This document shows positions 1 to 18,173 of a DNA stretch of 18,173 nucleotides, piece after piece. The translations under genes were made by a program, and so were the position numbers. The notes beneath the pieces are model-generated. The model did not search any database. It was not told the DNA's origin and worked only from the letters and a program-made list of their open reading frames with translations. Source of the stretch: a virus. Every line of letters begins with the position of its first letter. Within the stretch, counting starts at the first letter, position 1. The DNA is taken from UHGV virus genome UHGV-1374553; one strand, written 5' to 3'.

Positions 1-234
1 AAATATACTTGGATTACAAATTAAAAAAATAACCGACCCCCGCCTCGATAAAATAATCAGAAAAGGAGCAATGTGGTTTAAGGGTTTGAATTTTAAAATG
101 CACTTACCATATTTATGTTTAGAGGTTTTGAATTTTTCATTAGGTTTGATATTTGATTTAGTAATTGAGTTTTATTATTTCCACTTGCGTTACGTCACTA
201 CTCGTGATATAATTTAGTTAACAATTTAAAGGAG
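1..234. repeat. Left inverted terminal repeat (ITR-L). It is the exact reverse complement of 17940-18173 and the terminus begins 5'-AAA.
   Basis: I compared the two ends block by block (1-63, 61-120, 121-180, 181-234 against the reverse complement of the right end). All blocks were identical. The identity breaks at 235 (a) versus 17939 (c, complement g). Confidence 0.9.
185..213 (+). promoter_or_regulatory. Inward-facing sigma-A-type promoter inside ITR-L. It has -35 TTGCGT (185-190), a 17-bp spacer, and a TG-extended -10 TGaTATAAT (205-213).
   Basis: The match to consensus is near-perfect (4/6 at -35, 6/6 at -10, plus the TG extension and optimal 17-bp spacing). The SD AAAGGAG at 228-234 follows immediately, with the first ORF just past the ITR. 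Confidence 0.55.
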
Positions 235-483
235 ATGTTAAATTTGAAACGTTATAGTATTAAAGGTAATTTTATATTCCCAGATTTAATTAAAGATGGA
301 ACGTATAAAAAATATATTGTTTGTCTTATGAATGATGTTCATTTAGATTTATATTCGTCATTCAATCTTATTCAACTAATTGGTGTATTAACTGAAAAAG
401 ATTTCAATATGATATATAATGAATACGGACAAAAAGAAATGATTTCGAGTAAACACATCGTTAAAATTAAGGAGGTAAAATAG
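235..483 (+). CDS. Hypothetical small protein (82 aa from ATG 235; the functional start may be TTG at 244, giving about 79 aa).
   Basis: The ORF sits directly downstream of the ITR promoter. The SD AAAGGAG ends at 234, abutting ATG 235 with zero spacing. The TTG at 244-246 has a 9-nt spacing, which is more plausible. No recognisable domain. Confidence 0.5.
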   Translation: MLNLKRYSIKGNFIFPDLIKDGTYKKYIVCLMNDVHLDLYSSFNLIQLIGVLTEKDFNMIYNEYGQKEMISSKHIVKIKEVK

Positions 484-484
484 C

Positions 485-781
485 ATGACATATAACGAAT
501 GGTTAGAAACTGAGGTAAGTAGATTGGAAAGAGGTAATAAAATATTATTGGATAAAGCTAATATTTTAGAAACAATACTCAACGAAGTACGCGACAATGA
601 ACTTGAAACAAGAGATAAAAATAAACAAATACTTAAATGGGCTTATTCCCTAGAAAAAGAAAACAAAGAATTAAAAGAAGAATTAAATACTTATACACCT
701 AACGAAGTATATAAAATTGTCAAAGAAAATAAACAACTTAAACAAGAATTATTTAATTTATATTTGAAACACTACAATTGA
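485..781 (+). CDS. Hypothetical coiled-coil protein (98 aa).
   Basis: SD AAGGAGG at 470-476 precedes ATG 485. The sequence is rich in K/E heptads. It is followed by an intrinsic terminator. Confidence 0.6.
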   Translation: MTYNEWLETEVSRLERGNKILLDKANILETILNEVRDNELETRDKNKQILKWAYSLEKENKELKEELNTYTPNEVYKIVKENKQLKQELFNLYLKHYN

Positions 782-809
782 CCACACTTTGTGTAGTCTT
801 TTTTATTTT
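771..809 (+). terminator. Rho-independent terminator after the two left-end genes.
   Basis: Stem ACTACA (771-776) pairs with TGTAGT (792-797), with an inner CACAC/GTGT pairing. It is followed by CTTTTTTATTTT (798-809). Confidence 0.55.
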
Positions 810-813
810 CCTA

Positions 814-822
814 TGATATAAT
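814..822 (+). promoter_or_regulatory. TG-extended -10 element (TGATATAAT) for the structural operon, within the recurring motif TATGATATAAT. There is no good -35.
   Basis: TATGATATAAT at 812-822. The same 11-mer recurs at 7658-7668 and 11263-11273. Upstream sequence is AT-rich and the 17-bp-upstream hexamer TAGTCT is a poor -35. Confidence 0.45.
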
Positions 823-960
823 TAATTTATCGGGTATACTTCACATTGATTTGCACAGTTTAAAATACCCTACTTCCTAACTCAAACACATTTTATATAA
901 TTTTGTTGGTTGTTTTATCGCAACCTTTTATTCGAAATTTAACGACATGGAGGTGTAACA

Positions 961-1293
961 ATGGCTGAACAAACAACAGAAGAAGAAAAAGTAACAACTG
1001 ATGTTACTGAAGACGAAAACTCTAAAGACGACACACAAGTAGAAACAGAAGAAACGCCAACAGAAACAACAACAGAAACTTCTAATACATCTAATACTTC
1101 CATGGATATGGTACAATTAGAACAACGTATTACATCTTTAGAACAACGATTATTATCGTTAGAAACACCTGCACCAACAGAAACACAAACAACTGAAACA
1201 TCAGACGACACTTCAGAAGAAACTTCTAATGGAGACGATACATCAGATTCTAACGAATCAACTGAAGACGTTAAAAAAATATTAGGTTTATAG
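961..1293 (+). CDS. Acidic coiled-coil head-assembly protein (110 aa). It sits in the phi29 gp7 scaffold position upstream of the capsid gene. A head-fibre or inner-core role is not excluded.
   Basis: SD GGAGGTG at 949-955. The protein is very acidic and T/E-rich with a LEQRITSLEQRLLSLE heptad segment. It lies two genes upstream of the major capsid gene. Confidence 0.4.
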   Translation: MAEQTTEEEKVTTDVTEDENSKDDTQVETEETPTETTTETSNTSNTSMDMVQLEQRITSLEQRLLSLETPAPTETQTTETSDDTSEETSNGDDTSDSNESTEDVKKILGL

Positions 1294-1305
1294 GAGGTAT
1301 ACGAC

Positions 1306-1494
1306 ATGGGTCTATATCAAGGTAAAAACATGCGTGGCATGACGCAGGAACATTTCGCTGACTCTAAATTAAATAAGTCACGCGAACTTAATTCAGGCAT
1401 GAGCATTGACACTTCTAAATCAGAAGACAGTTACGGTAATCAAGTTCATTCCCTATCAAAACAATCATATTCAAACGACGCAGAGGAGGTTTAA
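1306..1494 (+). CDS. Hypothetical hydrophilic small protein (62 aa) between the scaffold-like gene and the capsid gene.
   Basis: SD AGGAGG sits 8 nt before ATG 1306. The ORF is tightly packed, with its stop 3 nt before the capsid-gene ATG. Ser-rich, no motif. Confidence 0.45.
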   Translation: MGLYQGKNMRGMTQEHFADSKLNKSRELNSGMSIDTSKSEDSYGNQVHSLSKQSYSNDAEEV

Positions 1495-1497
1495 CAA

Positions 1498-2691
1498 ATG
1501 GCTATTGCAGACATTATTGCTGACAAATCAAAATCAGCGCTACAAGACTTTAACCATGACCACGGTAAAGCATGGAAATGGGGAGAAAATTGGACTAATG
1601 TTGATACAATGTTTGAAACATTTATTAACAAATACTTATTCCCAAAAATTAATGAAACATTACTTATTGACATAGCTTTAGGTAACCGTTTTAACTGGTT
1701 AGCAGAAGAAGACCCTTATATAGGTCAATATTCAGAAGAATATGTTATTATGGATACTGTACCAGTCGCTATGAACTTAGGTAAAGATGAAGAATTAATG
1801 CTAAAACGTAATTATCCACGTATGGCAACACGTCTTTACGGTGCTGGATTTGTTAAAAAACAAAAATTTACATTAAATAATAACGATGCACGTTTTAACT
1901 TTAAAGACTTAGGCGACGCTACCAACTATGCCCTAGCTGTATTGAAGAAAAAGATTTCAGATATTAACGTAGAAGAAGAAAAAGAGATACGTGCTATGGT
2001 TGTAGACTATGCTATTAACCAATTATCTGATTCTAATATTCGTTACGCTACATCACAAGAAGATTTAGCAAGCAAAGTATTTGAAGCTGTATTGAATATG
2101 CAAAATAACAGTGACAAATACAATGAAGCTAATACTGCTTCAGGTGGGTCAATTGGTCGTTACACAACAGTTTCTAAATTGTCCGATATTGCTATTTTGA
2201 CAACAGATAGTATTAAATCATTCTTATTAGATACAAAAATTGCTAACACATTCCAAGCATCAGGTATTGACTTTACAGACCATGTAATTAGCTTTGACGA
2301 CTTAGGCGGTGTGTACAAAACAACTACCGATGTTACATTAGCAGAAAATGACACAATCACTTACTTACGTGGTTTCGGGGATTACCAAGCACAAATCGGT
2401 GACATTATCCCTGAGGGTACAACGTTTACGTTTGACATTTCAGAACAAACTGAATTTGTTGGTAATGTAACCGAGGTTAAACCTGATAGTGACTTGTTCG
2501 CTTTCATCTTTGACATTAACGCATTGAAATACAAACGTAATACGAATGGTATGCTTAAAAAACCATTCTACAATGGAGAATTTGACGAGGTCACTCATTG
2601 GATTCATTATTACAGTTTCAAATCTGTTTCTCCATTCTTTAACAAAATTTTAATCACTTCTGAGCCTGATGAAGAGGAACTAGAAGAATAA
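1498..2691 (+). CDS. Major capsid (head) protein (397 aa).
   Basis: SD GAGGAGG precedes ATG 1498. Size and position, after the scaffold-like gene and before the connector, match phi29-like and 44AHJD-like head gene order. The sequence resembles the 44AHJD/P68 major head protein. Confidence 0.75.
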   Translation: MAIADIIADKSKSALQDFNHDHGKAWKWGENWTNVDTMFETFINKYLFPKINETLLIDIALGNRFNWLAEEDPYIGQYSEEYVIMDTVPVAMNLGKDEELMLKRNYPRMATRLYGAGFVKKQKFTLNNNDARFNFKDLGDATNYALAVLKKKISDINVEEEKEIRAMVVDYAINQLSDSNIRYATSQEDLASKVFEAVLNMQNNSDKYNEANTASGGSIGRYTTVSKLSDIAILTTDSIKSFLLDTKIANTFQASGIDFTDHVISFDDLGGVYKTTTDVTLAENDTITYLRGFGDYQAQIGDIIPEGTTFTFDISEQTEFVGNVTEVKPDSDLFAFIFDINALKYKRNTNGMLKKPFYNGEFDEVTHWIHYYSFKSVSPFFNKILITSEPDEEELEE

Positions 2692-2709
2692 CTTTAAAGG
2701 AGCGTTAAC

Positions 2710-3708
2710 ATGACAAATCTATCACATTCAAATAGTGAACATGTTGGCGTTGAAACAGAGTTATCTGAAGACATAAGCCTGCGTGTTATCGAACATAGAA
2801 ATCGATTCCGTAGGCTTATTTTTAATCGTTATTTAGAATTTCTCCCCCTACTGATTAACTATACAAATAAACGTAGTGTGGGCATTGATTTCTTACAATT
2901 AGAAACTGCCCTACGTCAAGGTTATCAAGTTGTTGTCGGTAAGGCTAGAAATGACCAAATTATGATTCTAGGTTATATCGAGAATAACCATTATAAAAAC
3001 AGTGGAGATTTTCTTAATAACTTTAACTTTGCTTTTGAACGCCGTTTGAATGAAAAAGACATACGCTTTACAATACCTAAATACTTACGCCCTGATTACG
3101 CATTAGAAATACAACATTATGACAATTGTAAGTCGGGAGATTTCATTGTTATGCGTAATAAACCCGTGACACTTAATAACGATTACGCGATTATTTCACA
3201 TTATTGTGATGAACTTGCTGAAATTATATTAAGTCGTTTTTCACTTATTATGCAGTCAAAATTCGCTAAAATATTTAAATCAGAAGTTAACGATGAAACC
3301 ATTAATCAGTTCATAACGCAACTGTTCAATGGCTCCCCTTTCATTAAAGTCAGTGGGTTATTTGATGCAGAAGAGGACATTATAGACTTAGCAAGTGATT
3401 ACGTTAACAATGCACTCGTTGAAATGAAACGAGAATATCAAAACAAAATAAGTGAACTATCTAACTTCTTAGGTGTTAACTCTTTAGCAGTTGATAAAGA
3501 AAGCGGTGTGAGTGATACAGAAGCAAAAAGTAACCGTTCATTTACAACGTCTAACTCAAACATTTATTTAAGAGGTCGTGAAAGTATAGAAATGTTAAAC
3601 CAACGTTTCGGGTTAGAATTACACCCTTATTACGATGATGAAGCAACATCACAAGTCGATATTCAAAACATGGCTACTGACAACTACGGAGGTGGTACAA
3701 GTGGCTAG
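2710..3708 (+). CDS. Portal / upper collar (connector) protein (332 aa).
   Basis: SD AAAGGAG precedes ATG 2710. Size and position match the 44AHJD-like order capsid, upper collar, lower collar, tail fibre. Confidence 0.6.
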   Translation: MTNLSHSNSEHVGVETELSEDISLRVIEHRNRFRRLIFNRYLEFLPLLINYTNKRSVGIDFLQLETALRQGYQVVVGKARNDQIMILGYIENNHYKNSGDFLNNFNFAFERRLNEKDIRFTIPKYLRPDYALEIQHYDNCKSGDFIVMRNKPVTLNNDYAIISHYCDELAEIILSRFSLIMQSKFAKIFKSEVNDETINQFITQLFNGSPFIKVSGLFDAEEDIIDLASDYVNNALVEMKREYQNKISELSNFLGVNSLAVDKESGVSDTEAKSNRSFTTSNSNIYLRGRESIEMLNQRFGLELHPYYDDEATSQVDIQNMATDNYGGGTSG

Positions 3709-4489
3709 ATATACAACAACCTTATTTGAAATCATTGAGAGTGAATTAGATAGAAAAGGATTTAATGAATTTGTTAATAACGGACAATTAACCATTGATA
3801 ACTTTGATTATCAATTCATTCAAAAAGTGATGCGTTTTGACGATGATGTTAAAAAAATCGTAGACGAAACCTTTTTTAAAGGATTTCACTTTACAGACGA
3901 ACATATTGACCGTTATTTTAAACAATCATTTGTTACACGTTTCTTAGATAGAGAGATTAGCAGGCAAACGGTAGAAGCTTTTGCATCACAGTTATTGTTC
4001 TATACCATTGCTCGTGAGGACTATATTTATACTGTATTCGGTAATGAAATGTATAAATACTTAGAAAACCACGTGGACTTTAACAGTGATGTGATTGGTA
4101 ATATGATTTCAGAAGAAACGTCAGAAAACACGAATAATGAAACGTCTAATAGTGACCGTAATACAACACGTAATTCAACAACTGATAATCGTGAACTATC
4201 TTCCACCCTTCCTCAATCAGAAATCAACTTAAATGTTGATAATGATGTATTAACTTATGGGGATGATAATACAATATCTAAAAATAAAAACAATGGTACA
4301 GACAAGGAACAATCAAATAGTGACCGTGAAAGTAAAGGCAATGCTTCGAAAAACGGCACACAAGATACAACAGGAAATACAAAATCATTAACAAAAACAT
4401 ATCTATTGGAAAATCTTGAAAAACTTTACTCAATGCGTGAACGTTTATTCGATGATTATGATAAAAAATTGTTTTTACAAATATGGTAA
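3701..4489 (+). CDS. Lower collar protein (263 aa from GTG 3701; the ORF-track ATG at 3635 overlaps the upstream gene by 74 nt). It has an N/S/T/D-rich low-complexity C-terminal region.
   Basis: GGAGGTGG at 3688-3695 lies 8 nt before GTG 3701, which overlaps the stop of the previous gene. The position matches the lower-collar slot. Confidence 0.55.
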   Translation: MARYTTTLFEIIESELDRKGFNEFVNNGQLTIDNFDYQFIQKVMRFDDDVKKIVDETFFKGFHFTDEHIDRYFKQSFVTRFLDREISRQTVEAFASQLLFYTIAREDYIYTVFGNEMYKYLENHVDFNSDVIGNMISEETSENTNNETSNSDRNTTRNSTTDNRELSSTLPQSEINLNVDNDVLTYGDDNTISKNKNNGTDKEQSNSDRESKGNASKNGTQDTTGNTKSLTKTYLLENLEKLYSMRERLFDDYDKKLFLQIW

Positions 4490-4503
4490 TGGAGTGATAA
4501 ACA

Positions 4504-6375
4504 ATGGCAGAAGAATTTAAACCACTAGGAAATATTGAAAGTTTTTTAAACAATATATATAAAGGTAAAAAAGAATATACACCTTTTTATTCTGACAAAG
4601 CAGATTATAATACAAACGCACCTAGTTATTATGATGATTTAGCAAGAAAATCTAAACTAATAGAAATATTAGCACATAGAATATGGGATTATGATGAAGA
4701 ATTAAGAAAAAGATTTAAAGAATGGGATGAATTAATAAAACAATTCCCGTTAATTGCGGAAGCATTATTTAGAGAATGGTTACGCAATGGAACAATTGAA
4801 AAAATTATACGTGAAGAACTTGAAGATTTTAAAGATGAAGTAAGAGATTTAATTAAAGATATTGACGATTACATCAATGGTTTTGATTTAAGAAAACTAG
4901 AACCTATTTTTATTAATGGTATTAGTGGTGTAAGAAATGCTGTTAACCAATGTTTTGCTATTGATTATGAAACGAATCACATATATACTACACAATCAGA
5001 TAGTAAAAGTCCAGAAGGTTTTCATATAAGTAAATTAACGCCTAGTGGTCATTTATTATCTACGATGTGGATAGAACAAGGTGGTCATGGTACCAACTTT
5101 GGTATTGATAGAATGACAAACGGAGAACTAAAAATTTGGTTTTATCATAGTGGTATATCTAAATTAGTTTTTATACCTTATAGAGATAATACTTCTTTAA
5201 CTTTAGATAATGCTAAAGAATTAAAAGATTTAACACCAAATAGTTTAAAAGAAACAGGTTTTGCTGTAACAATTGACCAAGAGTATGATAAATTAGTAGT
5301 AAGACATTTTGATGCTAGGATTGAAATAAGAAGTCGTAAAGACATTATTAATGGTATCGATAAAATAGAAAAAGAAATACAGGTAGACCCTAACGAAAAT
5401 AATGATGATAGACCAATGCAAGGATTAGCTGTTAATGGTAACGATTTATACTGGCAAAGTGGTTGGGGAGATTTATCAAGTCCAACTAAAGTTATAAAAT
5501 ATAACTTATCTACTGGAGAGGAAGAATATACTAGGGTTGTTGATCATTTACCATTGCAAAGAGGTAACGACGACCCTTATGACGCATACAGGGAACCAGA
5601 AGGATTATTTTTACATGTAAATCCATATAATAAAAAACAAACATTATTAATGGTTTACACTACAGGAGGTTTGGGTAAACGTTATAATGTCATGTATGGA
5701 TTTGTACAAACAGGTGCTATGAACCATTGGAACTCAATGACACAACTGGGGTCTCAAAATTATAAATTAACCAAAGATGACGGACGTGCATTGTCTGCGT
5801 TAGATACTTATACATCATTAAATGATTTTACCAACCCAGGTTGGTACTACTTAACAGGTGCCGAAGCTGATAAAATGGAAGACATGCCTTATCCTACACA
5901 AGGAGCTGGGTGGTGGGTATTTGTTTCACCTTATCACCAAAACTTTGGTTTTGTACAAACAGTTAAAAGAGCTTCAGGGGCAAGAAAAATAATTTCTTTT
6001 TCACGTTCTGGTAATAGAGATAGGTTTACAGGTGAATTTAGTTATGGAATTTGGACGGTTAATACTACTAATAGTCATCATCAAGAATATTTAAATAATG
6101 ATGATTGGAATGATTTATTATCAAATGTTACTGTTCCGGGAGAGTATTATATGACAGAAGCCACTACTTTAAGATTTAATGATGTTCCAGAAGATTTTAA
6201 AGAAGTAGGTTGTTGGCTAAATATAACATCTGGTAATAATGGTGGACAAATTAGGCAAGAGTTAAAATCTAATTCATCTCAATATTTAGATATGGCTTAT
6301 AGGAACGTTCAAGTAGATACAAACAAACCAACACATGATTGGAATGTTTATAGATTATTTGATATAAATAATTAG
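4504..6375 (+). CDS. Tail fibre / receptor-binding protein (623 aa).
   Basis: SD GGAGTG precedes ATG 4504. A large protein following the collar genes, with a helical N-terminus and a G/W/Y-rich C-terminal half suggesting a beta-propeller. This corresponds to the tail-fibre slot of P68-like phages. Confidence 0.6.
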   Translation: MAEEFKPLGNIESFLNNIYKGKKEYTPFYSDKADYNTNAPSYYDDLARKSKLIEILAHRIWDYDEELRKRFKEWDELIKQFPLIAEALFREWLRNGTIEKIIREELEDFKDEVRDLIKDIDDYINGFDLRKLEPIFINGISGVRNAVNQCFAIDYETNHIYTTQSDSKSPEGFHISKLTPSGHLLSTMWIEQGGHGTNFGIDRMTNGELKIWFYHSGISKLVFIPYRDNTSLTLDNAKELKDLTPNSLKETGFAVTIDQEYDKLVVRHFDARIEIRSRKDIINGIDKIEKEIQVDPNENNDDRPMQGLAVNGNDLYWQSGWGDLSSPTKVIKYNLSTGEEEYTRVVDHLPLQRGNDDPYDAYREPEGLFLHVNPYNKKQTLLMVYTTGGLGKRYNVMYGFVQTGAMNHWNSMTQLGSQNYKLTKDDGRALSALDTYTSLNDFTNPGWYYLTGAEADKMEDMPYPTQGAGWWVFVSPYHQNFGFVQTVKRASGARKIISFSRSGNRDRFTGEFSYGIWTVNTTNSHHQEYLNNDDWNDLLSNVTVPGEYYMTEATTLRFNDVPEDFKEVGCWLNITSGNNGGQIRQELKSNSSQYLDMAYRNVQVDTNKPTHDWNVYRLFDINN

Positions 6376-6386
6376 GAGGTAAAATC

Positions 6387-7184
6387 ATGGTCAAGATTGA
6401 AAAGAATTTAAGTTATAACAACAATTATTATCCTGAAACCAATCAAAGAAAGTACATTACTATTCACGAAACTGCAAATACGGGTGTCGGCGCAAATGCC
6501 GATGCTCATGCTAATTTCATTAATAATGGCTCAGGGGAAACATGGCATTATTCGGTTGATGACACGAAAACCGTACAACACTACTTGCATACAACATCTT
6601 GCTGGCATGCTGGCACGTATAACGGTAATGTTCAAAGTATTGGGATAGAAATGTGCGTGAACAGTGACGGTAACTACAAAAAAACACTTCAAAACACAAT
6701 TGAGTTAGTTAAAAAACTGATGAAAGAGTTAAATATTTCAGCTAGCAACGTTGTCCAACATAACTTTTGGAGTGGTAAAAACTGTCCTACCTTACTTAGA
6801 CAAGGCACACACGGTATGAATTGGGAACAATTTATTGCAGGGGTTAAAGGAAAATCAACAGAAAGTGCTAAACCGAGTAAGAAAGAAGTGCCAAAAGGTT
6901 GGGATGATGTTAATAAACACGGCACTATATGGAAAAAAGAAAAAGCTACCTTTGTTGTAGGTAGTGAAAAAATAGAAACACGTATAGGGGCACCCTTTAG
7001 AAGTGTTAAAAGTGGTGGTTTTGTAAAACCTAAACAAGAAATTAAATATGATTATGTTTGCCTACAAGACGGGCATGTTTGGATACAACTAGAAAACAAC
7101 AAAGGTCAACAAGAATTTGTACCTGTTAGAACATGGAACAGTGAAACGGGTAAAGTAGGCAAGACATGGGGTGAATTTAAATGA
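6387..7184 (+). CDS. Endolysin: N-acetylmuramoyl-L-alanine amidase (Amidase_2/PGRP fold) plus a C-terminal SH3b cell-wall-binding domain (265 aa).
   Basis: SD AGGAGG precedes ATG 6387. Zn-ligand pattern HETAN...H...NCPT is typical of T7-lysozyme-type amidases. The C-terminal 100 aa (GWDDVNKHGTIW...APFRSV...DGHVWI...VPVRTWN...WGEFK) closely resemble the LysK/phi11/lysostaphin SH3b domain. Confidence 0.85.
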   Translation: MVKIEKNLSYNNNYYPETNQRKYITIHETANTGVGANADAHANFINNGSGETWHYSVDDTKTVQHYLHTTSCWHAGTYNGNVQSIGIEMCVNSDGNYKKTLQNTIELVKKLMKELNISASNVVQHNFWSGKNCPTLLRQGTHGMNWEQFIAGVKGKSTESAKPSKKEVPKGWDDVNKHGTIWKKEKATFVVGSEKIETRIGAPFRSVKSGGFVKPKQEIKYDYVCLQDGHVWIQLENNKGQQEFVPVRTWNSETGKVGKTWGEFK

Positions 7185-7240
7185 TAAAGAAACTTAAAAA
7201 TTTATTAGTAGCAGGATTTAGAATCATCATACGTTGGTAA
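7181..7240 (+). CDS. Possible 19-aa micro-ORF (MIKKLKNLLVAGFRIIIRW) joined to the endolysin stop by an ATGA overlap.
   Basis: ATG 7181-7183 overlaps TGA 7182-7184 of the endolysin. The peptide is amphipathic and hydrophobic. There is no independent SD, so this is speculative. Confidence 0.15.
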   Translation: MIKKLKNLLVAGFRIIIRW

Positions 7241-7262
7241 TCAAAATATAGGAGGAATATAT

Positions 7263-7610
7263 ATGAGTAGTAGATTTACTAGAAATTTATCAGAGGTAAA
7301 AGACGTTAATAAGTTAGCGCAACATGTAACAACACAAAATGACTTAGTTCAAACAACTGAGGGCGATGTATTTGTTGTCACTAAAAATGGTTTCCAAAAA
7401 ATAACAGGTGGGGTTGATAGTGGAGAATTAGATACTATCAAAGATGATGTAGATAAATCAAAATCAGACATTACTAATATAAAATCTGAACAAACAAAAG
7501 TTAAAAATCGTGTTACTGAATTAGAAACGTTTAAAGATAAACAGGATACAAAAAACAGTGAATTAGATAAAACGATTGAAGATTTAACGTCACGTATTGA
7601 AGCATTATAA
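7263..7610 (+). CDS. Hypothetical protein with a C-terminal coiled coil (115 aa), possibly a minor structural or tail-associated protein.
   Basis: SD GGAGG lies 7 nt before ATG 7263. Heptad-rich C-terminus. It lies between the endolysin and the tail knob. Confidence 0.5.
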   Translation: MSSRFTRNLSEVKDVNKLAQHVTTQNDLVQTTEGDVFVVTKNGFQKITGGVDSGELDTIKDDVDKSKSDITNIKSEQTKVKNRVTELETFKDKQDTKNSELDKTIEDLTSRIEAL

Positions 7611-7659
7611 AACCCAACTGATGACATTGAAAATGAAGAACCAACAGAATAAATAATTA

Positions 7660-7668
7660 TGATATAAT
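7660..7668 (+). promoter_or_regulatory. Second copy of the TG-extended -10 (TGATATAAT) within TATGATATAAT, upstream of the tail-knob gene.
   Basis: Exact 11-mer TATGATATAAT at 7658-7668 with an AT-rich upstream region. Confidence 0.4.
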
Positions 7669-7672
7669 AAGT

Positions 7673-7700
7673 ACATACAGTTTGTATGTGCTTATTTTAT
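7673..7700 (+). terminator. Hairpin (ACATACA-GTT-TGTATGT) plus a T-rich tract immediately after the -10 element. It could be a partial terminator for the upstream genes or a 5'-end stem-loop of the tail-knob transcript.
   Basis: Perfect 7-bp stem at 7673-7679 / 7683-7689 with a 3-nt loop, followed by GCTTATTTTAT. Confidence 0.3.
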
Positions 7701-7721
7701 ATATATATAGGAGGTTAAACA

Positions 7722-9485
7722 ATGGCAGACAGACGAACAACAGAGTTTGTATTTTTTTATGATACACCTTTAACAGATTATCAAAATACCATTCATTTTA
7801 GTAGTAATAGTGAACGTGATGATTACTTTTTGAATGGAGGTCATTTTAAAGCGACTAGTTACGTAAAACTACCATTTAATTTTATACGTGATCGTTCCAT
7901 TGTCAAAGTACCACAAATGAATTGGAGTGAAGCGCAAGGCATTAATTACTGTACATTTAAATCAGGTTTTGAGAATAGACGTTATTACGCTTTTGTTAAT
8001 GCAATAGAATACATTAATGATAATGTGATTCAAATGACACTTGTCATTGATACAGTCATGACTTATACACAAGGTAATGTATTATCAAACATTCAAAATG
8101 CACGTGTTGAACGTCAACATTTACCAAAATCACAATATGAATACATGTTACCTTACCTTCGTAATAATGACGATGTATTGAAAGCAACGAATAAATACTA
8201 TTCAAGAAACAATTTAGAGCAATTCGGTAATAACTATGTCATGTTTCAATCAAGTGCAGACCTATCTAAAAAATTCGGTAGTAAAAAAGAGCCAAATTTA
8301 GATAGTTCAAAAGGATTAACATATGACTACATGACAAGTCCCGTTAATCTATACATTATGTCACATTCAAATTTTGTTAATTTTATGGATAAAATGAGCA
8401 AGTACCCTTGGATTACACAAAACTTCCAAAAAATTCAAATGATACCCGAAAAGTTCATTGATAGTGGGGACATGATAAGTGTTAAAACCGATGAAAATAT
8501 TACAGGTTTGTACACCCTAAAAAATAATGGTCGTTCCAAAACATGGTCATTACCTAACCTAAACATGAGTTTTAACGAATTTTTGAATTTAGCAGGTATC
8601 AATCAACCTGAATTACGTCATTTAGTCCGTAATGAATATTTCACAATAGAGGTTTATTCATGGAATGGTGATGTAATGTTACTAGACGCTGGTAAGATAA
8701 CACCTGAAACAGGTGTGAAATTTAGAACAAAATCCATAATTGGTTTTCATAATGAAGTTAGAATTTATCCAGTTGACTATAACAAAGGCGAAGCAGAACA
8801 AGCGATTAAGTCAACCAATGGTGAGATACTCATAGATACAGGGTCATTCTTAAACACTGCTATTACATTTGATAGTTTTGCGGAAGTACCTGTGTTAATT
8901 GATAATGGTATTTTGGGACAATCACAACAAGCAAACCGTGTGAAAAATGCTGAAAGTCAATTAATTACAAATCGTGCGCAAAATATTGCAAGTGGTGATG
9001 ACATTAAATCTAAATTCTATGACGTGGCAAGTATTGCATCAAATATCAGTCCAACACAACTATTCAGTAAGTTTAATGATGAATATACGTATTATCAAAA
9101 CCAACAAGCTGAATATAAAGATTTGGCATTACAACCACCCTCAACAACATCTAGCCAAATGGGTAATGCTTTCCAAATAGCAAATAGTATTAATGGTTTA
9201 ACAATGAAAATTGGTATACCGTCACCATTTGATTTAGGAAGTATCATGAAGTATTATTTCATGTTTGGATTTGAAAATTCAGACCCTAGTACATCACCTT
9301 ATCCAATTAACAGTTGGACGGTATGCAATTACTTAAAAATGAGTGGTACCTACACATTACCACGTATCGACCCTATGCTTCTAGAACAACTCAAAGTGAC
9401 ACTTGAAAGTGGTGTACGTTTTTGGCATAATGACGGGTCTAATAATCCAATGGCGCAAAACGTCATGAACAATAAATTTAGATAG
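7722..9485 (+). CDS. Tail knob (phi29 gp9-like distal tail) protein (587 aa).
   Basis: SD AGGAGG precedes ATG 7722. Size (phi29 gp9 is 599 aa) and position match the tail-knob slot of 44AHJD/P68-like phages. Confidence 0.6.
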   Translation: MADRRTTEFVFFYDTPLTDYQNTIHFSSNSERDDYFLNGGHFKATSYVKLPFNFIRDRSIVKVPQMNWSEAQGINYCTFKSGFENRRYYAFVNAIEYINDNVIQMTLVIDTVMTYTQGNVLSNIQNARVERQHLPKSQYEYMLPYLRNNDDVLKATNKYYSRNNLEQFGNNYVMFQSSADLSKKFGSKKEPNLDSSKGLTYDYMTSPVNLYIMSHSNFVNFMDKMSKYPWITQNFQKIQMIPEKFIDSGDMISVKTDENITGLYTLKNNGRSKTWSLPNLNMSFNEFLNLAGINQPELRHLVRNEYFTIEVYSWNGDVMLLDAGKITPETGVKFRTKSIIGFHNEVRIYPVDYNKGEAEQAIKSTNGEILIDTGSFLNTAITFDSFAEVPVLIDNGILGQSQQANRVKNAESQLITNRAQNIASGDDIKSKFYDVASIASNISPTQLFSKFNDEYTYYQNQQAEYKDLALQPPSTTSSQMGNAFQIANSINGLTMKIGIPSPFDLGSIMKYYFMFGFENSDPSTSPYPINSWTVCNYLKMSGTYTLPRIDPMLLEQLKVTLESGVRFWHNDGSNNPMAQNVMNNKFR

Positions 9486-9497
9486 GGGACATAGACA

Positions 9498-9896
9498 ATG
9501 GAACAAAATGAATTACAAGTGAGTATTCAAGATATGGAAAGTTTTCAAAAATTCATATACAGTGGGGACATGTATTTGCTATACGCTGTATTGATATTTA
9601 TGGTAATTGATATTTTAACAGGTTGGGCGAAAGCTTTAAAAAATGGGAATTTATGGTCAACCAAATCTGTATATGGCGCTGGACGTAAAGTCATGGCACT
9701 GTTCGTTGTAATCATTGCTAACATTATTGATAATATATTGAACTTAAACGGTGCTTTAGTCGTTGTTATCATGTTCTATTACATTGCTACGGAGGGGTTA
9801 AGTATTTTAGAAAATTTAGCTGAAATGAATGTACCATTTCCAGAACAAATTAAAGATAAATTGGAGGTACTCAAAAACAAGGAGGGTAACAAATAA
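9498..9896 (+). CDS. Holin (132 aa).
   Basis: Hydrophobic helices at MYLLYAVLIFMVIDILTGW, VMALFVVIIANIIDNIL and ALVVVIMFYYIATEGLSIL, followed by a charged C-terminal tail. This is the typical phage holin-4 architecture of phi29 gp14 / phiLC3 size class. Confidence 0.8.
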   Translation: MEQNELQVSIQDMESFQKFIYSGDMYLLYAVLIFMVIDILTGWAKALKNGNLWSTKSVYGAGRKVMALFVVIIANIIDNILNLNGALVVVIMFYYIATEGLSILENLAEMNVPFPEQIKDKLEVLKNKEGNK

Positions 9897-11242
9897 TGGC
9901 GAAATGGCATAATGGTTATCAAGTATGGTTAACAGAAGCACAAAGTTTAGAAAATGCCCAACTTGTCGCAAATAGAGCGCTTAAAAAAGGTTGGGTAAAA
10001 ATGGCCATATGTGGTATGTTAGGTAACATGAGACATGAATCATCTGTTAACCCTAATATGTATGAATTCGGTATGAGTTGGGGTGCTGATAGAGGTTTTG
10101 GATTAGTTCAATGGACACCTAGAAGTAAATATTGGAATTGGGCATTACAAAAAGGATATAAAGAAAGTGAATTGCGCGACGGAGAAGCTCAAATGGATAG
10201 AATCGATTGGGAAGCTAAAAACGGAGAACAGTGGATGATACATCCTAATTTCGGAGAAACATTTGCGCAATTCCGTAAAAATAAAAATAATTGGAATATA
10301 TCACAAGCTACAGAATCATTTGCAAGGGGATATGAAAGACCTTTAGAAAGTGCATTAATTCAAAGTTTACCTGAACGAATTGCATTCGCTAAAAAGTGTT
10401 ATGATAATTTAGACTTTTCAGGTGGGTCTAGTGGTGGCGACGATGATGACGATGACGGTGGAAGTAGTGGTGGTGACGGTAGCAGTGGCGTAGGCGATAG
10501 TGCATTAGAAATCATTAAAAAAGCTGTTGATAAACTTGTTAATTCTATTGAAGACGCGTTAACATGGGATTTACACAGTATCGGAACAGAAAAGTTTTTC
10601 TCAAATTCTTTCTTCGCTATGCAGAAAACGTTTAATAATACGTATCGTATTCAAATGAATGTTAAACTGCTAGACCAAATCAAAGACCTTGTAGACGGTA
10701 TAGACGCAGGTGGGTCTAGTGGTGGTGGAGATGATGACGATGACGGTGGAAGTAGTGGGGGTGGAACTAAGGCAGAATACAACCTTAAAAATATCCGTTA
10801 CACGAACGATAGTCATTTAAATTATCCATTCGACCCCGACGGTACCAATCCCAACTATCCATTCCCACGCCCTCACTTAGGTGTGGATATAGACTTTTAC
10901 AATGAAAATTTAACAAGTCCAGTGGTTGGTACAACTTACACGATTACAGACCCTGCACCTAGTTGGCAAGGAGGCACAGGTTACGGAAACCACATTATTA
11001 TTGATAGTCCCGACGGTTACCAATATTTATTCGGACATCTTAACTCATTTAAAGTTAAAACAGGGGATAAAGTTAAAGTCGGCGACCTTATAGCTATAAC
11101 CAATAATACAGGGGATTCAACAGGTCCACACTTACACTTTGAAATTAGAAAAGGAGCTAATAAAGATAAGTCTTACGGTGGGACTGGTAAAGTTCAAGAC
11201 CCTGCTGTTTGGCGTGCTATGGTCAAACGTAAAACAAAATAA
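9896..11242 (+). CDS. Tail-associated peptidoglycan hydrolase (phi29 gp13-like, 448 aa). It has an N-terminal lysozyme-like domain, a central domain of about 75 aa flanked by two Gly/Ser/Asp linkers, and a C-terminal M23 (LytM/lysostaphin-type) endopeptidase.
   Basis: The ATG overlaps the holin stop (ATAATGG). The N-terminus has CGMLGNMRHESS...GFGLVQW (phage tail lysozyme-like). The C-terminus has HLGVD (HxxxD) ... GHLN ... PHLHFE (HxH), the M23 signature. phi29 gp13 has the same lysozyme+M23 layout. Confidence 0.8.
   Translation: MAKWHNGYQVWLTEAQSLENAQLVANRALKKGWVKMAICGMLGNMRHESSVNPNMYEFGMSWGADRGFGLVQWTPRSKYWNWALQKGYKESELRDGEAQMDRIDWEAKNGEQWMIHPNFGETFAQFRKNKNNWNISQATESFARGYERPLESALIQSLPERIAFAKKCYDNLDFSGGSSGGDDDDDDGGSSGGDGSSGVGDSALEIIKKAVDKLVNSIEDALTWDLHSIGTEKFFSNSFFAMQKTFNNTYRIQMNVKLLDQIKDLVDGIDAGGSSGGGDDDDDGGSSGGGTKAEYNLKNIRYTNDSHLNYPFDPDGTNPNYPFPRPHLGVDIDFYNENLTSPVVGTTYTITDPAPSWQGGTGYGNHIIIDSPDGYQYLFGHLNSFKVKTGDKVKVGDLIAITNNTGDSTGPHLHFEIRKGANKDKSYGGTGKVQDPAVWRAMVKRKTK
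10421..10475 (+). repeat. Direct repeat copy 1 inside the tail-lysin gene. It encodes the GGSSGGDDDDDDGGSSGG linker.
   Basis: The 55-bp segment matches 10709-10763 with about 6 mismatches. The offset is 288 bp, which is 96 codons and therefore in frame. Confidence 0.8.
10709..10763 (+). repeat. Direct repeat copy 2 inside the tail-lysin gene (second Gly/Ser/Asp linker).
   Basis: See copy 1. Confidence 0.8.
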
Positions 11243-11264
11243 ACTTTATTTTTATAAAAACTTA

Positions 11265-11273
11265 TGATATAAT
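11265..11273 (+). promoter_or_regulatory. Third, orphan copy of the TGATATAAT / TATGATATAAT motif. It lies downstream of the last late gene and points into the convergent non-coding region.
   Basis: TTATGATATAAT at 11262-11273, preceded by the AT-rich TTTATTTTTATAAAAAC. There is no plus-strand CDS downstream. The next element is a strong terminator about 200 nt away. Confidence 0.35.
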
Positions 11274-11288
11274 ATTAATTAGATAGGA

Positions 11289-11320
11289 CGATAAAAATCG
11301 TTGTGCCTATCTAAAAAATA
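11289..11320. terminator. Imperfect hairpin in the convergent intergenic region. It is a possible terminator for the minus-strand (polymerase) transcript.
   Basis: AGATAGG...CCTATCT outer stem with an inner ACGAT-AAAA-ATCGT stem. On the minus strand it is followed by AATTAATATTATATCATAAGTTTTTA. Confidence 0.3.
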
Positions 11321-11440
11321 AACAAAACATAATCAGTAGTAAGACATAACTACTTTAAAAATTATGTCACGTCTAGGAAACAGACGCTAAAGGCTAACCC
11401 TCCTTTAATTGCTTGTTAAATCATAAATTTTACATTACTT

Positions 11441-11477
11441 AAACCACGTCTTATTGGGTAGACGTGGTTTTTATTTT
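11441..11477 (+). terminator. Strong rho-independent terminator for the plus-strand late operon. It overlaps the 3' end and stop codon of the convergent polymerase gene.
   Basis: Perfect 11-bp stem AAACCACGTCT (11441-11451) pairs with AGACGTGGTTT (11460-11470), with an 8-nt loop, then TTATTTT. The polymerase stop is at 11451-11453 on the minus strand. Confidence 0.65.
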
Positions 11478-13754
11478 GCTATGAATTCTTTTTAAGATTT
11501 TAATATTGGTTGCTTCATCAATCGAGTGTGTTACGGGGTAGATATCATTAATTGAGAAGATACCAAGTGGACTTTCAATATAAAGGATATCGTCATAGTT
11601 TGTTGGGTCGTAATTCTGTCTGATTGATTCAAACATTTGTTGTTTGTCTTCTTCTAATATATTACTAAAATAGGTCGGGTAATCTTGTCCCATTTCAATA
11701 TGAGTTTCAGATGGGTAGATTGAAATAGTGCCTTGTTTATTATAGATGCTTTTATTGTTGTATATAACTGCACCGTGATGAAAGTCATTATTAATGAAAT
11801 CCTCGAATGATTGATTTGTATTAAATGCGTCTAACGGTACACCTGCACTTGCTACATGAATATTACCGTTTGGTTTAAGGTAAGCATATTTCTTATGATT
11901 CAGTACATACATTTTTTCAATACGGTCATTCTCAACGTCCCATTTACCTAAAGAAATAGGGTCGAAAATAGATGCGTCAATCTTATCTTTAATCGATGAT
12001 TTAAGATATAAACTGTCTGTGTCGCAGTATATAAAATTGTCGTCAATTTCTTGTTGTGTTAAGTCTTGTAATGGTTCAAGTAGATTGTATAATGATTGTG
12101 ACGTAACAAAGGTAGAAAATAAAATGTTTCGCTCTGTATTTTTATAACCATTAATCATATTGTATAGAAAACCGTCTTCATTTTTACGAAATAAGTTGAA
12201 GTGTGAACGTAAGGCTGGTATACCATATAAACCATTGAGTACGACTTTAGATAACATAACCTCCTCAGCACTATATATGGTTTCGTTTGGCTCGTCTGTG
12301 ATTGTGTAGTCATAAGGTGTTGGCATATCTATTTTAGTTTTTAGTTTACCTTGTGTTTTAATGAAATAATTGTCGTGTATAATATCCCTAGCACCAAAAT
12401 ATTCACAATCAAAAGTTAAATAACTCATGGTTGATATACGTGATAGGTCAAGCCCTGTTAAGTCCTCAATCATACGTAATGTATTTGTGTTGATGTTGAT
12501 ATAATCCTTGTCTTCTTTTAGGGCTGTGTTGTAGTATTTAACGAGTATTTTTTTAATCATGTCACTTTCAATATGAAATAGAATGTCAAAGTTAAATGAT
12601 TGTTTCGTCATTTTGTACAATGTAAATTGGTCACGATTGTCTAAGTCTGTTGATACTACCGTTTCTTTATCATATTCGTTATATGAAGAAAGGTAAGTAG
12701 GTATTTTATCATGATACATAACATAAGGATAAGATGAATTAATATCTATAGAAAAACAAGGCTCATTGATAATTTGTCCAATATATTTAGGGTTATACAT
12801 ATTTAATCCACCATTGTAAAAACCTTTGATATAGTCATACAAGTTCCGATTGTGAAAATGATAGTCGGTGTAGGATATCGGGTCATTACCTACCTTATGT
12901 AGTAATTGAAATTTTGTTAAATCATTATTCATATAACTTTCTAAAATGTTCACACTAAACGTCATTTTTGAATAATCGAAACCTGGAAATATATCCGAAT
13001 AGTGTATATGACATTGACCTAAAATTATAACATCATTATGGATGTAAGTCATTTGGTCATGGTCTAAACGTTTAAAACATTCATAGGCGTAAGCGTATGA
13101 CTCCACATCGTCCATATCCGACTCAATATCAAATATATTATATTGAAAGTCTGTTTTAAGTTGGTCTGATGTGAGATAACCACCGTCTTTAAGTTTCTTA
13201 CCTAATGTAGCAATTGAAGCTGTTGTTTTCATGAAGTTATCAACTACAACAAATTTAAAACCTTCTAAGAAAAAGATTAGGTCTAAGTTAATTGAAGATT
13301 TAACACGTTTTTCTAAAACAATGTTATCCTCTTTGGCATCTGTTTTAGCTTCTTTCATATTAACTGTGTTTTCGTTTGTTTCTGCTGACTTCATAAACAA
13401 ATTTTCAACTTTTACATTGGGATAGATATGTTGTATATCATGCAGTAAAAAGTGATTGTCGTACTTATTACAGTTATGTGCAATCATTTCTATAGCTGTA
13501 CGTGATTTATTGATTGTATCTTTACGTTCTGCATACTTAAAGAATGTTTTAAAGAATGAGTGAAAAGAGGGGAAAACCTCAACATCAATTGTTCCTTGAT
13601 TATCCCAACCAATAGCCACACTGTAGACAACGTTTTTATAATATGTTGGTTGTTTTCTTCCCTCTATCTTATTGTATGCTAGGGTTTCAATATCCCAATA
13701 TAATGTCATTTTGCGTAAACCTTTATGTGTTTGCATTGCCTCCAATAATCCCAT
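11451..13754 (-). CDS. Protein-primed family-B DNA polymerase (phi29 gp2-like, 767 aa).
   Basis: SD AAGGAG sits 8 nt before the ATG. Exo I is YWDIETL, Exo II is HNCNKYDNHF and Exo III is YIHNDVIIL. Motif A is DINSSYPYV (Dx2SLYP), motif B is KVVLNGLYG (Kx3NSxYG), and motif C is IYCDTDSLY. TPR-like insertions are consistent with a protein-primed polymerase. Confidence 0.9.
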   Translation of the reverse strand: MGLLEAMQTHKGLRKMTLYWDIETLAYNKIEGRKQPTYYKNVVYSVAIGWDNQGTIDVEVFPSFHSFFKTFFKYAERKDTINKSRTAIEMIAHNCNKYDNHFLLHDIQHIYPNVKVENLFMKSAETNENTVNMKEAKTDAKEDNIVLEKRVKSSINLDLIFFLEGFKFVVVDNFMKTTASIATLGKKLKDGGYLTSDQLKTDFQYNIFDIESDMDDVESYAYAYECFKRLDHDQMTYIHNDVIILGQCHIHYSDIFPGFDYSKMTFSVNILESYMNNDLTKFQLLHKVGNDPISYTDYHFHNRNLYDYIKGFYNGGLNMYNPKYIGQIINEPCFSIDINSSYPYVMYHDKIPTYLSSYNEYDKETVVSTDLDNRDQFTLYKMTKQSFNFDILFHIESDMIKKILVKYYNTALKEDKDYININTNTLRMIEDLTGLDLSRISTMSYLTFDCEYFGARDIIHDNYFIKTQGKLKTKIDMPTPYDYTITDEPNETIYSAEEVMLSKVVLNGLYGIPALRSHFNLFRKNEDGFLYNMINGYKNTERNILFSTFVTSQSLYNLLEPLQDLTQQEIDDNFIYCDTDSLYLKSSIKDKIDASIFDPISLGKWDVENDRIEKMYVLNHKKYAYLKPNGNIHVASAGVPLDAFNTNQSFEDFINNDFHHGAVIYNNKSIYNKQGTISIYPSETHIEMGQDYPTYFSNILEEDKQQMFESIRQNYDPTNYDDILYIESPLGIFSINDIYPVTHSIDEATNIKILKRIHSKIKTTSTQ

Positions 13755-13813
13755 GTCTTACACTCCTTAATTGCTAATAAAACAATTATATCACGTTGCG
13801 ATTCGTCACGCAA

Positions 13814-15809: not shown

Positions 15810-15820
15810 AAAATAACCTC

Positions 15821-15856
15821 CAAAAATAAAAGGGTAGGGAACCACCCCCACCCTTT
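15821..15856 (-). terminator. Intrinsic terminator/attenuator on the minus strand, inside the early region between the SSB-like gene and the micro-ORF/replication gene block.
   Basis: Minus-strand RNA folds as AAAGGGUGGGG-GUGGUU-CCCUACCCUUU, an 11-bp stem including one G-U pair with a 6-nt loop. It is followed by UAUUUUU, which appears as the A-run 15822-15828 on the plus strand. Confidence 0.5.
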
Positions 15857-16572: not shown

Positions 16573-16648
16573 TTGGGTACCTCCTTTACTTGATAAATCA
16601 ATTATAGCACGTTACGTAGTGTTACGCAACAAATATTTAAAATTTCTT

Positions 16649-17576: not shown

Positions 17577-17791
17577 CTTAATAAACCCTCCTTGAAAATA
17601 ACGTTAGTTAGATTTGTAATATTAAACTGTTTTCTCTTTCTATTATTGTCAACTAGGGTAATATATTTATAATAATTTCCACCGACAATTTTAAGCGTAT
17701 GTTTCAACCTTTTGTAAGTTGACAATTTAATAACTGTACCGTCCTCAAATATTCTGTAATTGGGATAACGTTCTAAAGTTTTGTATTTCAT
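17573..17791 (-). CDS. Small early protein (72 aa) with a NUMOD4-like N-terminal module. It resembles the N-terminal half of HNH_3 homing endonucleases but lacks the HNH catalytic motif.
   Basis: SD GAGGAG. RYPNYRIFEDGTVIKL resembles the FPNYEVSNLGRVRSL consensus. KQFNITNLTNVIF resembles the K.F.VHRLVA.AF strand that precedes HNH motifs. The protein ends 6 aa later with no H-N-N residues. Confidence 0.3.
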   Translation of the reverse strand: MKYKTLERYPNYRIFEDGTVIKLSTYKRLKHTLKIVGGNYYKYITLVDNNRKRKQFNITNLTNVIFKEGLLR

Positions 17792-17931
17792 TTGTTTATC
17801 TCCTCTAATTCTACAATTTTATCATATAAATTATGATTAACTTTTGTTATTTGCGTTATTGTCTCTCTTAATGCTAGTATCTCAACAACTAAATTATGTT
17901 TCTTTTTAAAGTACATAATTAATTTTTTCAC
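17782..17931 (-). CDS. First ORF of the right-end early operon (49 aa from GTG 17931, or 44 aa from ATG 17916). It is predicted helical.
   Basis: GGAGG (17943-17939, inside the ITR) lies 7 nt before GTG. The stop TGA overlaps the ATG of the next gene (ATGA). Translation: VKKLIMYFKKKHNLVVEILALRETITQITKVNHNLYDKIVELEEINK. Confidence 0.3.
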
Positions 17932-17939
17932 TGGTTATC

Positions 17940-18173
17940 CTCCTTTAAATTGTTAACTAAATTATATCACGAGTAGTGACGTAACGCAAGTGGAAATAAT
18001 AAAACTCAATTACTAAATCAAATATCAAACCTAATGAAAAATTCAAAACCTCTAAACATAAATATGGTAAGTGCATTTTAAAATTCAAACCCTTAAACCA
18101 CATTGCTCCTTTTCTGATTATTTTATCGAGGCGGGGGTCGGTTATTTTTTTAATTTGTAATCCAAGTATATTT
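17940..18173. repeat. Right inverted terminal repeat (ITR-R).
   Basis: This is the reverse complement of 1-234. Position p pairs with 18174-p. Confidence 0.9.
17961..17989 (-). promoter_or_regulatory. Mirror copy of the ITR promoter in ITR-R. It faces inward (leftward) and would drive the minus-strand early operon.
   Basis: Same sequence as 185-213 by ITR symmetry. It is followed on the minus strand by GGAGG (17943-17939) and a GTG-initiated ORF at 17931. Confidence 0.55.

Follow-up and report, generated by a model that had tools for sequence, protein, structure and literature searches.

A predicted promoter and Shine-Dalgarno cassette inside the inverted terminal repeats of the picovirus UHGV-1374553

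The very early promoter C2 of phage phi29 is a host sigma-A promoter located near a protein-primed replication origin and reading inward into early genes, and it is switched off by protein p6, which nucleates 62–125 bp from the right genome end and 46–68 bp from the left (PMC4974454, PMC10899789). Here we describe a comparable arrangement in UHGV-1374553, a picovirus of the Rountreeviridae (Rakietenvirinae-like) with a protein-primed family-B DNA polymerase and probably with a coagulase-negative Staphylococcus as host; its complete linear genome (18,173 bp, 32% G+C) is the whole stretch of DNA that was analysed, and we refer to it as the window. At the inner edge of each inverted terminal repeat (ITR) we identify a predicted sigma-A-type promoter followed by a Shine-Dalgarno (SD) sequence, together a cassette that faces a different first gene at each end. 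The promoter lies 185–213 nt from each genome end and points inward, as C2 does, and the window and phi29 also have in common a convergent two-arm layout with a central bidirectional terminator. They differ in that the phi29 ITR is only 6 bp, so that C2 lies outside any repeat and has no duplicate at the other end, and in that an SD sequence at a repeat boundary is not described there. No p6 or p4 homologue was identified in the window, in which no search aimed at these two proteins was made.

Andhra- and P68-like staphylococcal picoviruses, which belong to the same subfamily, have one inward promoter within about 0–75 nt of each ITR, and the early promoter and leader of Andhra and of PT1-9 align with the ITR cassette of the window (TTGC..., ...ATCAAGTTA...GGAG). 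In the Andhra- and P68-like phages, however, the promoters are outside the repeat and differ between the ends, and no early-class unit precedes the structural genes. PT1-9 (PP212902) resembles the window in having an ITR of about 186 nt that contains TTGCAC-N17-TGTTAYAAT and an SD sequence, in that the first ATG coincides with the repeat boundary on either side, and in having internal promoters of its own TTGCAC type and accessory open reading frames (ORFs) and a terminator ahead of its structural promoter. It differs in its -35 and spacer sequences, in that identity between the two copies of its repeat is confined to the outer 127 nt, the promoter/SD part having diverged, and in a polymerase only 68% identical to that of the window. 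Our literature searches found no description of promoters inside Rountreeviridae ITRs, and nothing usable on ITR-embedded promoters in Cp-1 and PRD1. It is plausible that an ITR-embedded cassette is new for this family; a terminal early promoter beside a protein-primed origin is already established in phi29.

More distant systems also combine terminal repeats with regulatory functions. The ITRs of adenovirus and adeno-associated virus, whose genomes are linear and in part protein-primed, have origin functions together with transcription-factor sites or promoter activity, beside E1A and E4, and poxvirus ITRs too carry regulatory or coding DNA. The adenovirus and adeno-associated virus repeats differ from those of the window in being eukaryotic, in having no ribosome-binding site, and in lacking an identical cassette that feeds two different first genes.

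The predicted promoter in the repeat and its internal copies

The two ITRs (1–234 and, as the mirror copy on the minus strand, 17940–18173) are each 234 nt long and 100% complementary. The genome ends in 5'-AAA, reiterated bases of the kind that allow sliding-back, and three identical terminal bases are the rule for protein-primed ends (PMC6266182). Near the inner edge of the left ITR, a -35 hexamer TTGCGT (185–190) is separated by a 17-nt spacer (191–207) from a -10 hexamer TATAAT (208–213), with an extending TG at 205–206; the spacer ends in CGTGA and transcription is predicted to start near 220. The right copy (17961–17989, minus strand; TATAAT at 17966–17961) has its predicted start near 17954. 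The SD sequence AAAGGAG (228–234, plus strand) forms the final seven bases of the left repeat, and at the inner edge of the right repeat the base following the repeat is a G, giving AAAGGAGG (17939–17946, minus strand). An earlier reading of this DNA from its letters alone (the sequence-only reading) had proposed the -35, the 17-bp spacer, the TG-extended -10, the AAAGGAG and a repeat that stops exactly at the SD, and we find every one of these elements where it had placed them.

We designate this element a class I promoter, and two further copies are located far from the ends, both on the minus strand. The first (TTGCGTAACACTACGTAACGTGCTATAAT, 16601–16629) is followed 15 nt on by AAAGGAGG and then by the ATG of a 73-aa early gene, and the second (TTGCGTGACGAATCGCAACGTGATATAAT, 13785–13813) is followed 17 nt on by AAGGAG and then by the polymerase ATG at 13754. 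A blastn search of positions 1–700 against GenBank phages gave no match, and nucleotide comparisons were therefore taken from IMG/VR and ENA/Logan contigs; these include relative A, whose polymerase is 93% identical to that of the window. The promoter at 16629 is identical in relative A and that at 13813 is conserved there.

The exact pattern TTGCGT-N17-TATAAT occurs at four sites in the window, beginning at 185 (plus strand) and at 17989, 16629 and 13813 (minus strand), against a mean of 0.30 in dinucleotide shuffles, of which the largest count was three and none of 200 reached four. Since the two ITR copies represent one event, the comparison is better made with three independent copies against 0.30 expected, for which the Poisson P is about 0.004. 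All four sites are intergenic and sense-oriented, with AGGAG 15–17 nt downstream and then a start codon, those of ORF79, ORF47, the 73-aa early gene and the DNA polymerase gene respectively. CGTG[AC]TATAAT is present in each, which constitutes an extended -10 (TGnTATAAT) matching TATAAT at six of six positions, and no class I cassette has a hairpin between the -10 and the SD. The sequence TGNTATAAT occurs nine times, compared with about 2.9 in shuffles. The two internal copies of the promoter-leader-SD module stand ahead of the polymerase gene and of a conserved early gene, which favours a role in transcription. The ITR element thus belongs to the class that serves replication genes, and this is our main reason for taking it to be a promoter, probably an early one.

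Each class I promoter also contains one CGTNACG palindrome (188–194, 13804–13810, 16610–16616 and 17980–17986). There are six copies of this palindrome in the genome where 1.57 are expected, four of the six being in class I promoters, and it could be an operator or could merely reflect common ancestry of the cassettes. A further class-I-like site on the minus strand (11389–11361, two mismatches) was rejected, its -10 not being kept in clade contigs. A search of IMG/VR with a degenerate promoter pattern gave three matches, in contigs of 8.9–59 kb that are not picovirus-sized, and these looked fortuitous.

Conservation and distribution among relatives

The ITR of relative A is about 70% identical to that of the window overall, and the identity is unevenly distributed, with conserved islands at 1–16 (the terminus, AAA first), 30–54 (C-rich) and 185–234 (promoter, leader and SD). 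From the terminus inward it is 94% at 1–16, 46% at 17–29, 100% at 30–54, 72% at 55–100 and 58% over the 84 nt before the promoter (101–184); it then rises to 90% in the promoter (185–213, 26 of 29 bases) and 81% in the leader and SD (214–234), or 86% for 185–234 as a whole. The contrast between 90% and 81% on the one hand and 58% in the preceding 84 nt on the other identifies the promoter-leader-SD block as a conserved island in a fast-evolving ITR. The cassette exists as two haplotypes in relative A and more than 15 other independent metagenome contigs, and the identity always ends right after AAAGGAG, beyond which at least four unrelated first genes are found (47, 70/72, 79 and 58 aa).

The inner boundary is seen in other assemblies as well. 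An IMG/VR contig that is 99.8% identical to the window begins and ends exactly at the inner ITR boundaries (235 and 17939), and a MEGAHIT contig from a human gut sample has at both ends an identical 127 nt, equal to its k-mer size, reaching as far as position 234 of the window. Public sequencing runs in which this phage is present include SRR34489107, SRR32080638 and ERR912029. In contig L109, ITR haplotype and ORF79 family have been reassorted relative to the window. The ITR-proximal regions are among the least conserved, with 43–51% alignable to relative A compared with 100% for most other parts. The segments 4500–6400 and 10000–11000, which cover the tail-fibre gene and the N-terminal half of the peptidase gene, also have no alignment to relative A, as is typical of receptor and cell-wall module swapping.

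To place the arrangement within the family, both ends were compared in 28 related genomes, 26 of which have alignable ITRs. An inward promoter lies near each end in all 28, and in about 23 of the 26 the terminal promoters are 0–75 nt inward of the repeat and are different at the two ends. These outside-repeat promoters are of a -35/-10 type (TTGCAA or TTGACA) on the replication arm and of an extended -10 type on the structural arm. Promoter and SD are inside the repeat only in the window, in relative A with its clade, and in PT1-9. By these counts the arrangement, which the sequence-only reading had linked to these phages as such, is not a general property of them.

The C-rich block AACCGACCCCCGCCTCG (30–54 and 18120–18144) is 100% kept in relative A, and PT1-9, Andhra, P68 and relative B likewise have a C-rich block, roughly 13–45 nt in from the end of the genome or record. 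The block is probably an origin or packaging element. A 48-aa ORF inside the ITR (71–217) was discarded, since only 2 nt separate its SD from an ATG that relative A lacks. Some public records have terminal artefacts. The RefSeq record of Andhra (NC_047813, our L002) carries an Illumina TruSeq adapter (GTGACTGGAGTTCAGACGTGTGCTCTTCCGATCT) at both ends (1–54 and the last ~54 nt), which means that its annotated repeat_region is shifted and that the true terminus is AAATATTAAGG, as in PSU3; the same adapter remnant is present in several IMG/VR contigs.

First genes, transcription units and other elements

As had been proposed, different genes begin at the two ITR boundaries; they start 7–9 nt beyond the SD, a spacing that holds in all clade contigs. 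On the left, AAAGGAG is followed after 9 nt by TTG244, the start of ORF79 (244–483, plus strand), and on the right AAAGGAGG is followed after 7 nt by GTG17931, the start of ORF47 (17788–17931, minus strand). There is no room for a further promoter between 234 and either start. The sequence-only reading had offered 235 or 244 as the left start; of the two, TTG244 stands, since a homologue in contig L109 with 78% identity has its ATG at the aligned position, and ATG235 falls, having 0-nt spacing from the SD and being disfavoured by the same alignment. ORF79 has no known function and gave no PHROG or Pfam match, and it has a dN/dS of 0.18, indicative of purifying selection; among its 13 homologue clusters, gene callers give 79 aa in 10 and 83–86 aa in the rest. 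The right ORF is 47 aa long (17931 to 17788) and not 49 aa as first described. It has 72.7% identity over 44 aa to a hypothetical protein of Metroid, an unrelated 151-kb Staphylococcus phage (E 2e-13); relative A lacks it and has the ORF72 homologue directly next to the cassette. ORF47 thus looks like a horizontally moving accessory gene. The dN/dS of ORF79 and the Metroid homologue of ORF47 mark both first genes as real.

The plus strand reads from the left through two orphan ORFs, ORF79 and ORF98 (485–781; a 53% aa homologue occupies the same place in relative A), and then through a 180-nt non-coding gap into the structural and lysis genes (961–11242). An intrinsic terminator (780–809, plus strand; hairpin GACCACAC/GTGTAGTC and a T-run) overlaps the ORF98 stop. 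Its predicted energy is -5.7 kcal/mol in the window, -10.3 in the 99.8%-identical IMG/VR contig and -12.3 in relative A, and a hairpin equivalent to it is present in PT1-9; at position 783 the window has a C-A mismatch in the stem (780–798), which is perfect in the IMG/VR contig. Directly beyond the terminator is an extended -10 promoter with no -35 (TATGATATAAT, 812–822, plus strand) that belongs to the structural-gene arm and is of a different class, class II. This placement suggests that the left ITR promoter would drive only 244–781, so that its proposed control of ORF 244–483 holds as part of a two-gene unit only, closed by the terminator.

On the minus strand, ORF47 is followed from the right by ORF72 (17791–17573, its start overlapping the ORF47 stop as ATGA), the membrane protein ORF132 (17502–17104) and ORF152 (17107–16649), and then by the 73-aa gene, a 136-aa protein annotated as a single-stranded DNA-binding protein (SSB) in relatives' records, a 171-aa protein, the encapsidation ATPase and the polymerase. 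A strong intrinsic terminator (15820–15856, minus strand) has its hairpin at 15856–15829, with a 12-bp stem, six GC pairs and -19.3 kcal/mol; ahead of it the terminator scan gave only a weak hairpin with a 6-bp stem in ORF152 (16814–16799). With no convincing terminator earlier, the right ITR transcript would extend over six genes, and the promoter at 16629 would reinforce it. The right copy had been credited with the whole minus-strand operon, a claim that the two further class I promoters (16629 and 13813) and the 15856–15829 terminator do not allow. The two arms converge on a bidirectional terminator (11441–11470, either strand, -16.1 kcal/mol).

Gene content assigns replication to the right arm and structure to the left. 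The 767-aa polymerase (13754–11451, minus strand) is 64–68% identical to the annotated DNA polymerases of PT1-9, Andhra and P68-like phages, and PF03175 is on record for polymerase homologues of the same length; an exact look-up of its sequence returned no record. No terminal-protein gene turned up in the analysis of the window. The small early ORFs gave no informative Pfam or PHROG matches. For ORF72, a NUMOD4-like DNA-binding protein was considered and not adopted, the matches being weak PHROG HNH endonuclease ones only (E ~1e-3) with none in Pfam, and this is a lead only. A 46-aa ORF (17554–17414) was dismissed because it overlaps ORF132 in another frame and is called in no related contig. 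Homologues of ORF132 (MKFLxGFITS...; L001 17544–17921, L047 203–619) are at the replication end in the window and relative A, and at the structural-gene end in PT1-9 and relative B.

Class II promoters (TTATGATATAAT) have no -35 and have a hairpin directly downstream, and they are located at 812–822, 7658–7668 and 11263–11273. Of 19 relatives checked, drawn from the Andhra-, P68- and window-like groups, 16 have the pattern TATG[AT]TATAAT ahead of the first conserved gene on the structural side. The copy of TTATGATATAAT at 7658–7668 is in the gap before the tail-knob gene, and with a 14-bp hairpin and T-run directly after it (7666–7696) it looks like a promoter-attenuator pair. The promoter at 812–822 is separated from the first structural-side gene by a 130-nt leader (823–960, plus strand) that is 96% conserved in relative A. 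A stem in this leader, GGGTAT/ATACCC, is replaced by GGGAGT/ACTCCC in PT1-9, a change that may be compensatory, and the predicted fold pairs CUACUUCC with the SD, with a z of only -1.2.

Between the convergent arms is a candidate small RNA gene (11262–11475, plus strand), in which the third class II promoter (TTATGATATAAT) is followed by about 195 nt of non-coding sequence that ends in the bidirectional terminator. Its fold has -47.9 kcal/mol (z = -4.8) with no Rfam match, and a 5' hairpin and a 3' block with an anti-SD-like CCCUCCUUU are kept in 10 clade contigs around a variable middle. Rfam searches at E <= 1 gave two sub-threshold chance matches only and no prohead RNA (pRNA). As candidates for the missing pRNA of the family, the non-coding stretches 823–960 and 11274–11470 are not supported, because the long leader is absent from relative B and L046, and the gap between convergent arms is only about 110–115 nt in the Andhra and P68 annotations.

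Origin and role of the cassette

We consider it likely that the ITR carries a host sigma-A promoter and SD that act as an early cassette feeding different first genes at the two ends, an interpretation drawn from sequence comparisons. At its inner edge the ITR would supply a promoter of the sigma-A type (TTGCGT, 17 nt, TGnTATAAT) and, after a leader about 14 nt long, the SD AAAGGAG. From starts near 220 and 17954, host RNA polymerase would transcribe inward, co-directionally with replication from the nearest end, and the first 15 nt of both mRNAs, SD included, would be identical. The left transcript would carry two accessory genes (244–781) and stop at 780–809, just before the conserved structural-gene promoter, and the right transcript would carry the 47-, 72- and 132-aa accessory genes together with the first of the core early genes, before running into the unit of the 16629 promoter as far as 15856–15829. 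Reuse of the promoter-leader-SD module before the 73-aa early gene and the polymerase gene suggests that it is the early-class cassette of this phage.

As to its origin, the ground plan of the family probably has a single inward promoter immediately inside each ITR, the two ends differing in promoter class. On the simplest reading, the repeat of this clade and of PT1-9 then expanded inward across the early-class promoter and its SD. A copy of the cassette would thereby have reached the structural-gene end, adding a second slot for early expression at the head of a small accessory unit. The repeat would stop at the SD because the coding sequences beyond it differ, and the mechanisms by which protein-primed replicons keep their ITRs homogeneous would preserve its identity. 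On the phi29 model, the ITR promoter could be silenced by origin-binding proteins once replication begins.

Several observations weigh against this interpretation. The -35 TTGCGT, at 17 nt, matches TTGACA at three of six positions, only the TTG, so activity would rest on the extended -10; yet the same hexamer is identical in all class I copies and in relative A. A generic sigma-70 scan gave 104 matches where 100.8 are expected, no excess over chance in a 32% G+C genome, and the ITR promoter is missing from the 60 sites shown by that scan, its -35 being below the scan threshold. The literature search found no transcript map for this family, and the start sites, strength and timing given here are predictions. 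The relatives sharing the arrangement are kin by descent and represent roughly two lineages, not many independent events. The terminus (AAATATAC...) and the C-rich block are assigned as the origin region by analogy, from family membership only, and the terminal protein or origin-binding proteins could occlude a promoter in the ITR. The sequence-only reading is thus partly supported overall; in calling the promoter strong and early, and the repeat a replication origin, it was drawing inferences.

A first alternative, which we think unlikely but take seriously, is that the promoter is real and is not specifically early, firing throughout infection or under a clade-specific factor. Class I promoters share more than sigma-A needs (TTGCGTNAC...CGTG) and have one CGTNACG each, and PT1-9 has its own promoter flavour at all its copies, a pattern that would fit a phage-encoded regulator. 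Against this, promoters of this class stand ahead of the SSB-like, 73-aa and polymerase genes, whose expression is needed before replication, and the shared spacer sequence could reflect duplication of one cassette.

It is rather improbable that the cassette matters only at the right end, with the left copy a by-product of ITR homogenisation that has little or no role. About 23 of the 26 relatives have no early-class promoter at the structural end, only the extended -10 type (here at 812–822), and the left accessory genes have no known function. This proposal is difficult to reconcile with the position of ORF79, which starts 9 nt after the ITR SD with no other promoter fitting upstream, with the purifying selection on this gene (dN/dS 0.18), with its retention in 13 homologue clusters, or with a dedicated terminator at 780–809 that is conserved in relative A and PT1-9.

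Two further explanations have little to recommend them. The ITRs of protein-primed phages bind replication proteins (PMC4974454) and the block at 185–234 is conserved, but that it is a replication or packaging protein-binding site merely resembling a promoter is very improbable, given that two copies of this block lie far from the ends, both of them immediately ahead of an SD and gene start, and that a homologous promoter is outside the ITR in most relatives. Least probable of all is that assembly or finishing produced the perfect 234-bp repeat, or its inner boundary, as an artefact. A perfect repeat is unusual (85–99% identity in relatives), and end artefacts such as the Andhra adapter occur in some public records of the family, but independent assemblies (IMG/VR and MEGAHIT) break or repeat at the same boundary, and relative A has that boundary with a different ITR sequence.

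A more tentative extension, about which we are doubtful, is that the cassette is a portable landing pad that makes both ends equivalent early slots and acts as a homology arm for capturing or swapping accessory genes. Being shared by the two ends, with close copies at two internal sites, it would serve as such an arm. Hints in this direction are the four first genes, the reassortment in L109, the presence of ORF132 at opposite ends, the ORF47 homologue in Metroid and the poorly conserved ends. The promoter-early stem-loop (PeSL), a mobile regulatory cassette of T4-type phages, is a short repeated early-promoter module that flanks variable accessory ORFs and may be a recombination arm, and the window is similar in its poorly conserved ITR-proximal regions and in a cassette ahead of four different genes. 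It differs in that the cassette has no stem-loop, hairpins in the window following class II and not class I promoters, and in having only four copies, two of them held identical by the ITR; the comparison is an analogy only. Since the cassette lies in the origin region, a link between its activity and either the start of replication or a clade-specific operator (CGTNACG) is also conceivable.

These findings overturn nothing and would not surprise a specialist, and their use is in annotation and engineering. They provide a predicted transcription map for an unstudied and widespread clade of staphylococcal picoviruses, the 73-aa early protein being indexed in 178 blocks of the assembly collection. 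Because metagenome contigs are routinely cut inside or at the ITR, the promoter of the first genes is lost from them. The ITR-proximal slots have a built-in promoter and ribosome-binding site and tolerate gene turnover, and they would therefore be natural insertion sites for engineering therapeutic picoviruses. For the family, the arrangement suggests that ITR boundaries in protein-primed phages are plastic and can take in regulatory DNA, which would give rise to a second early unit at the structural-gene end.

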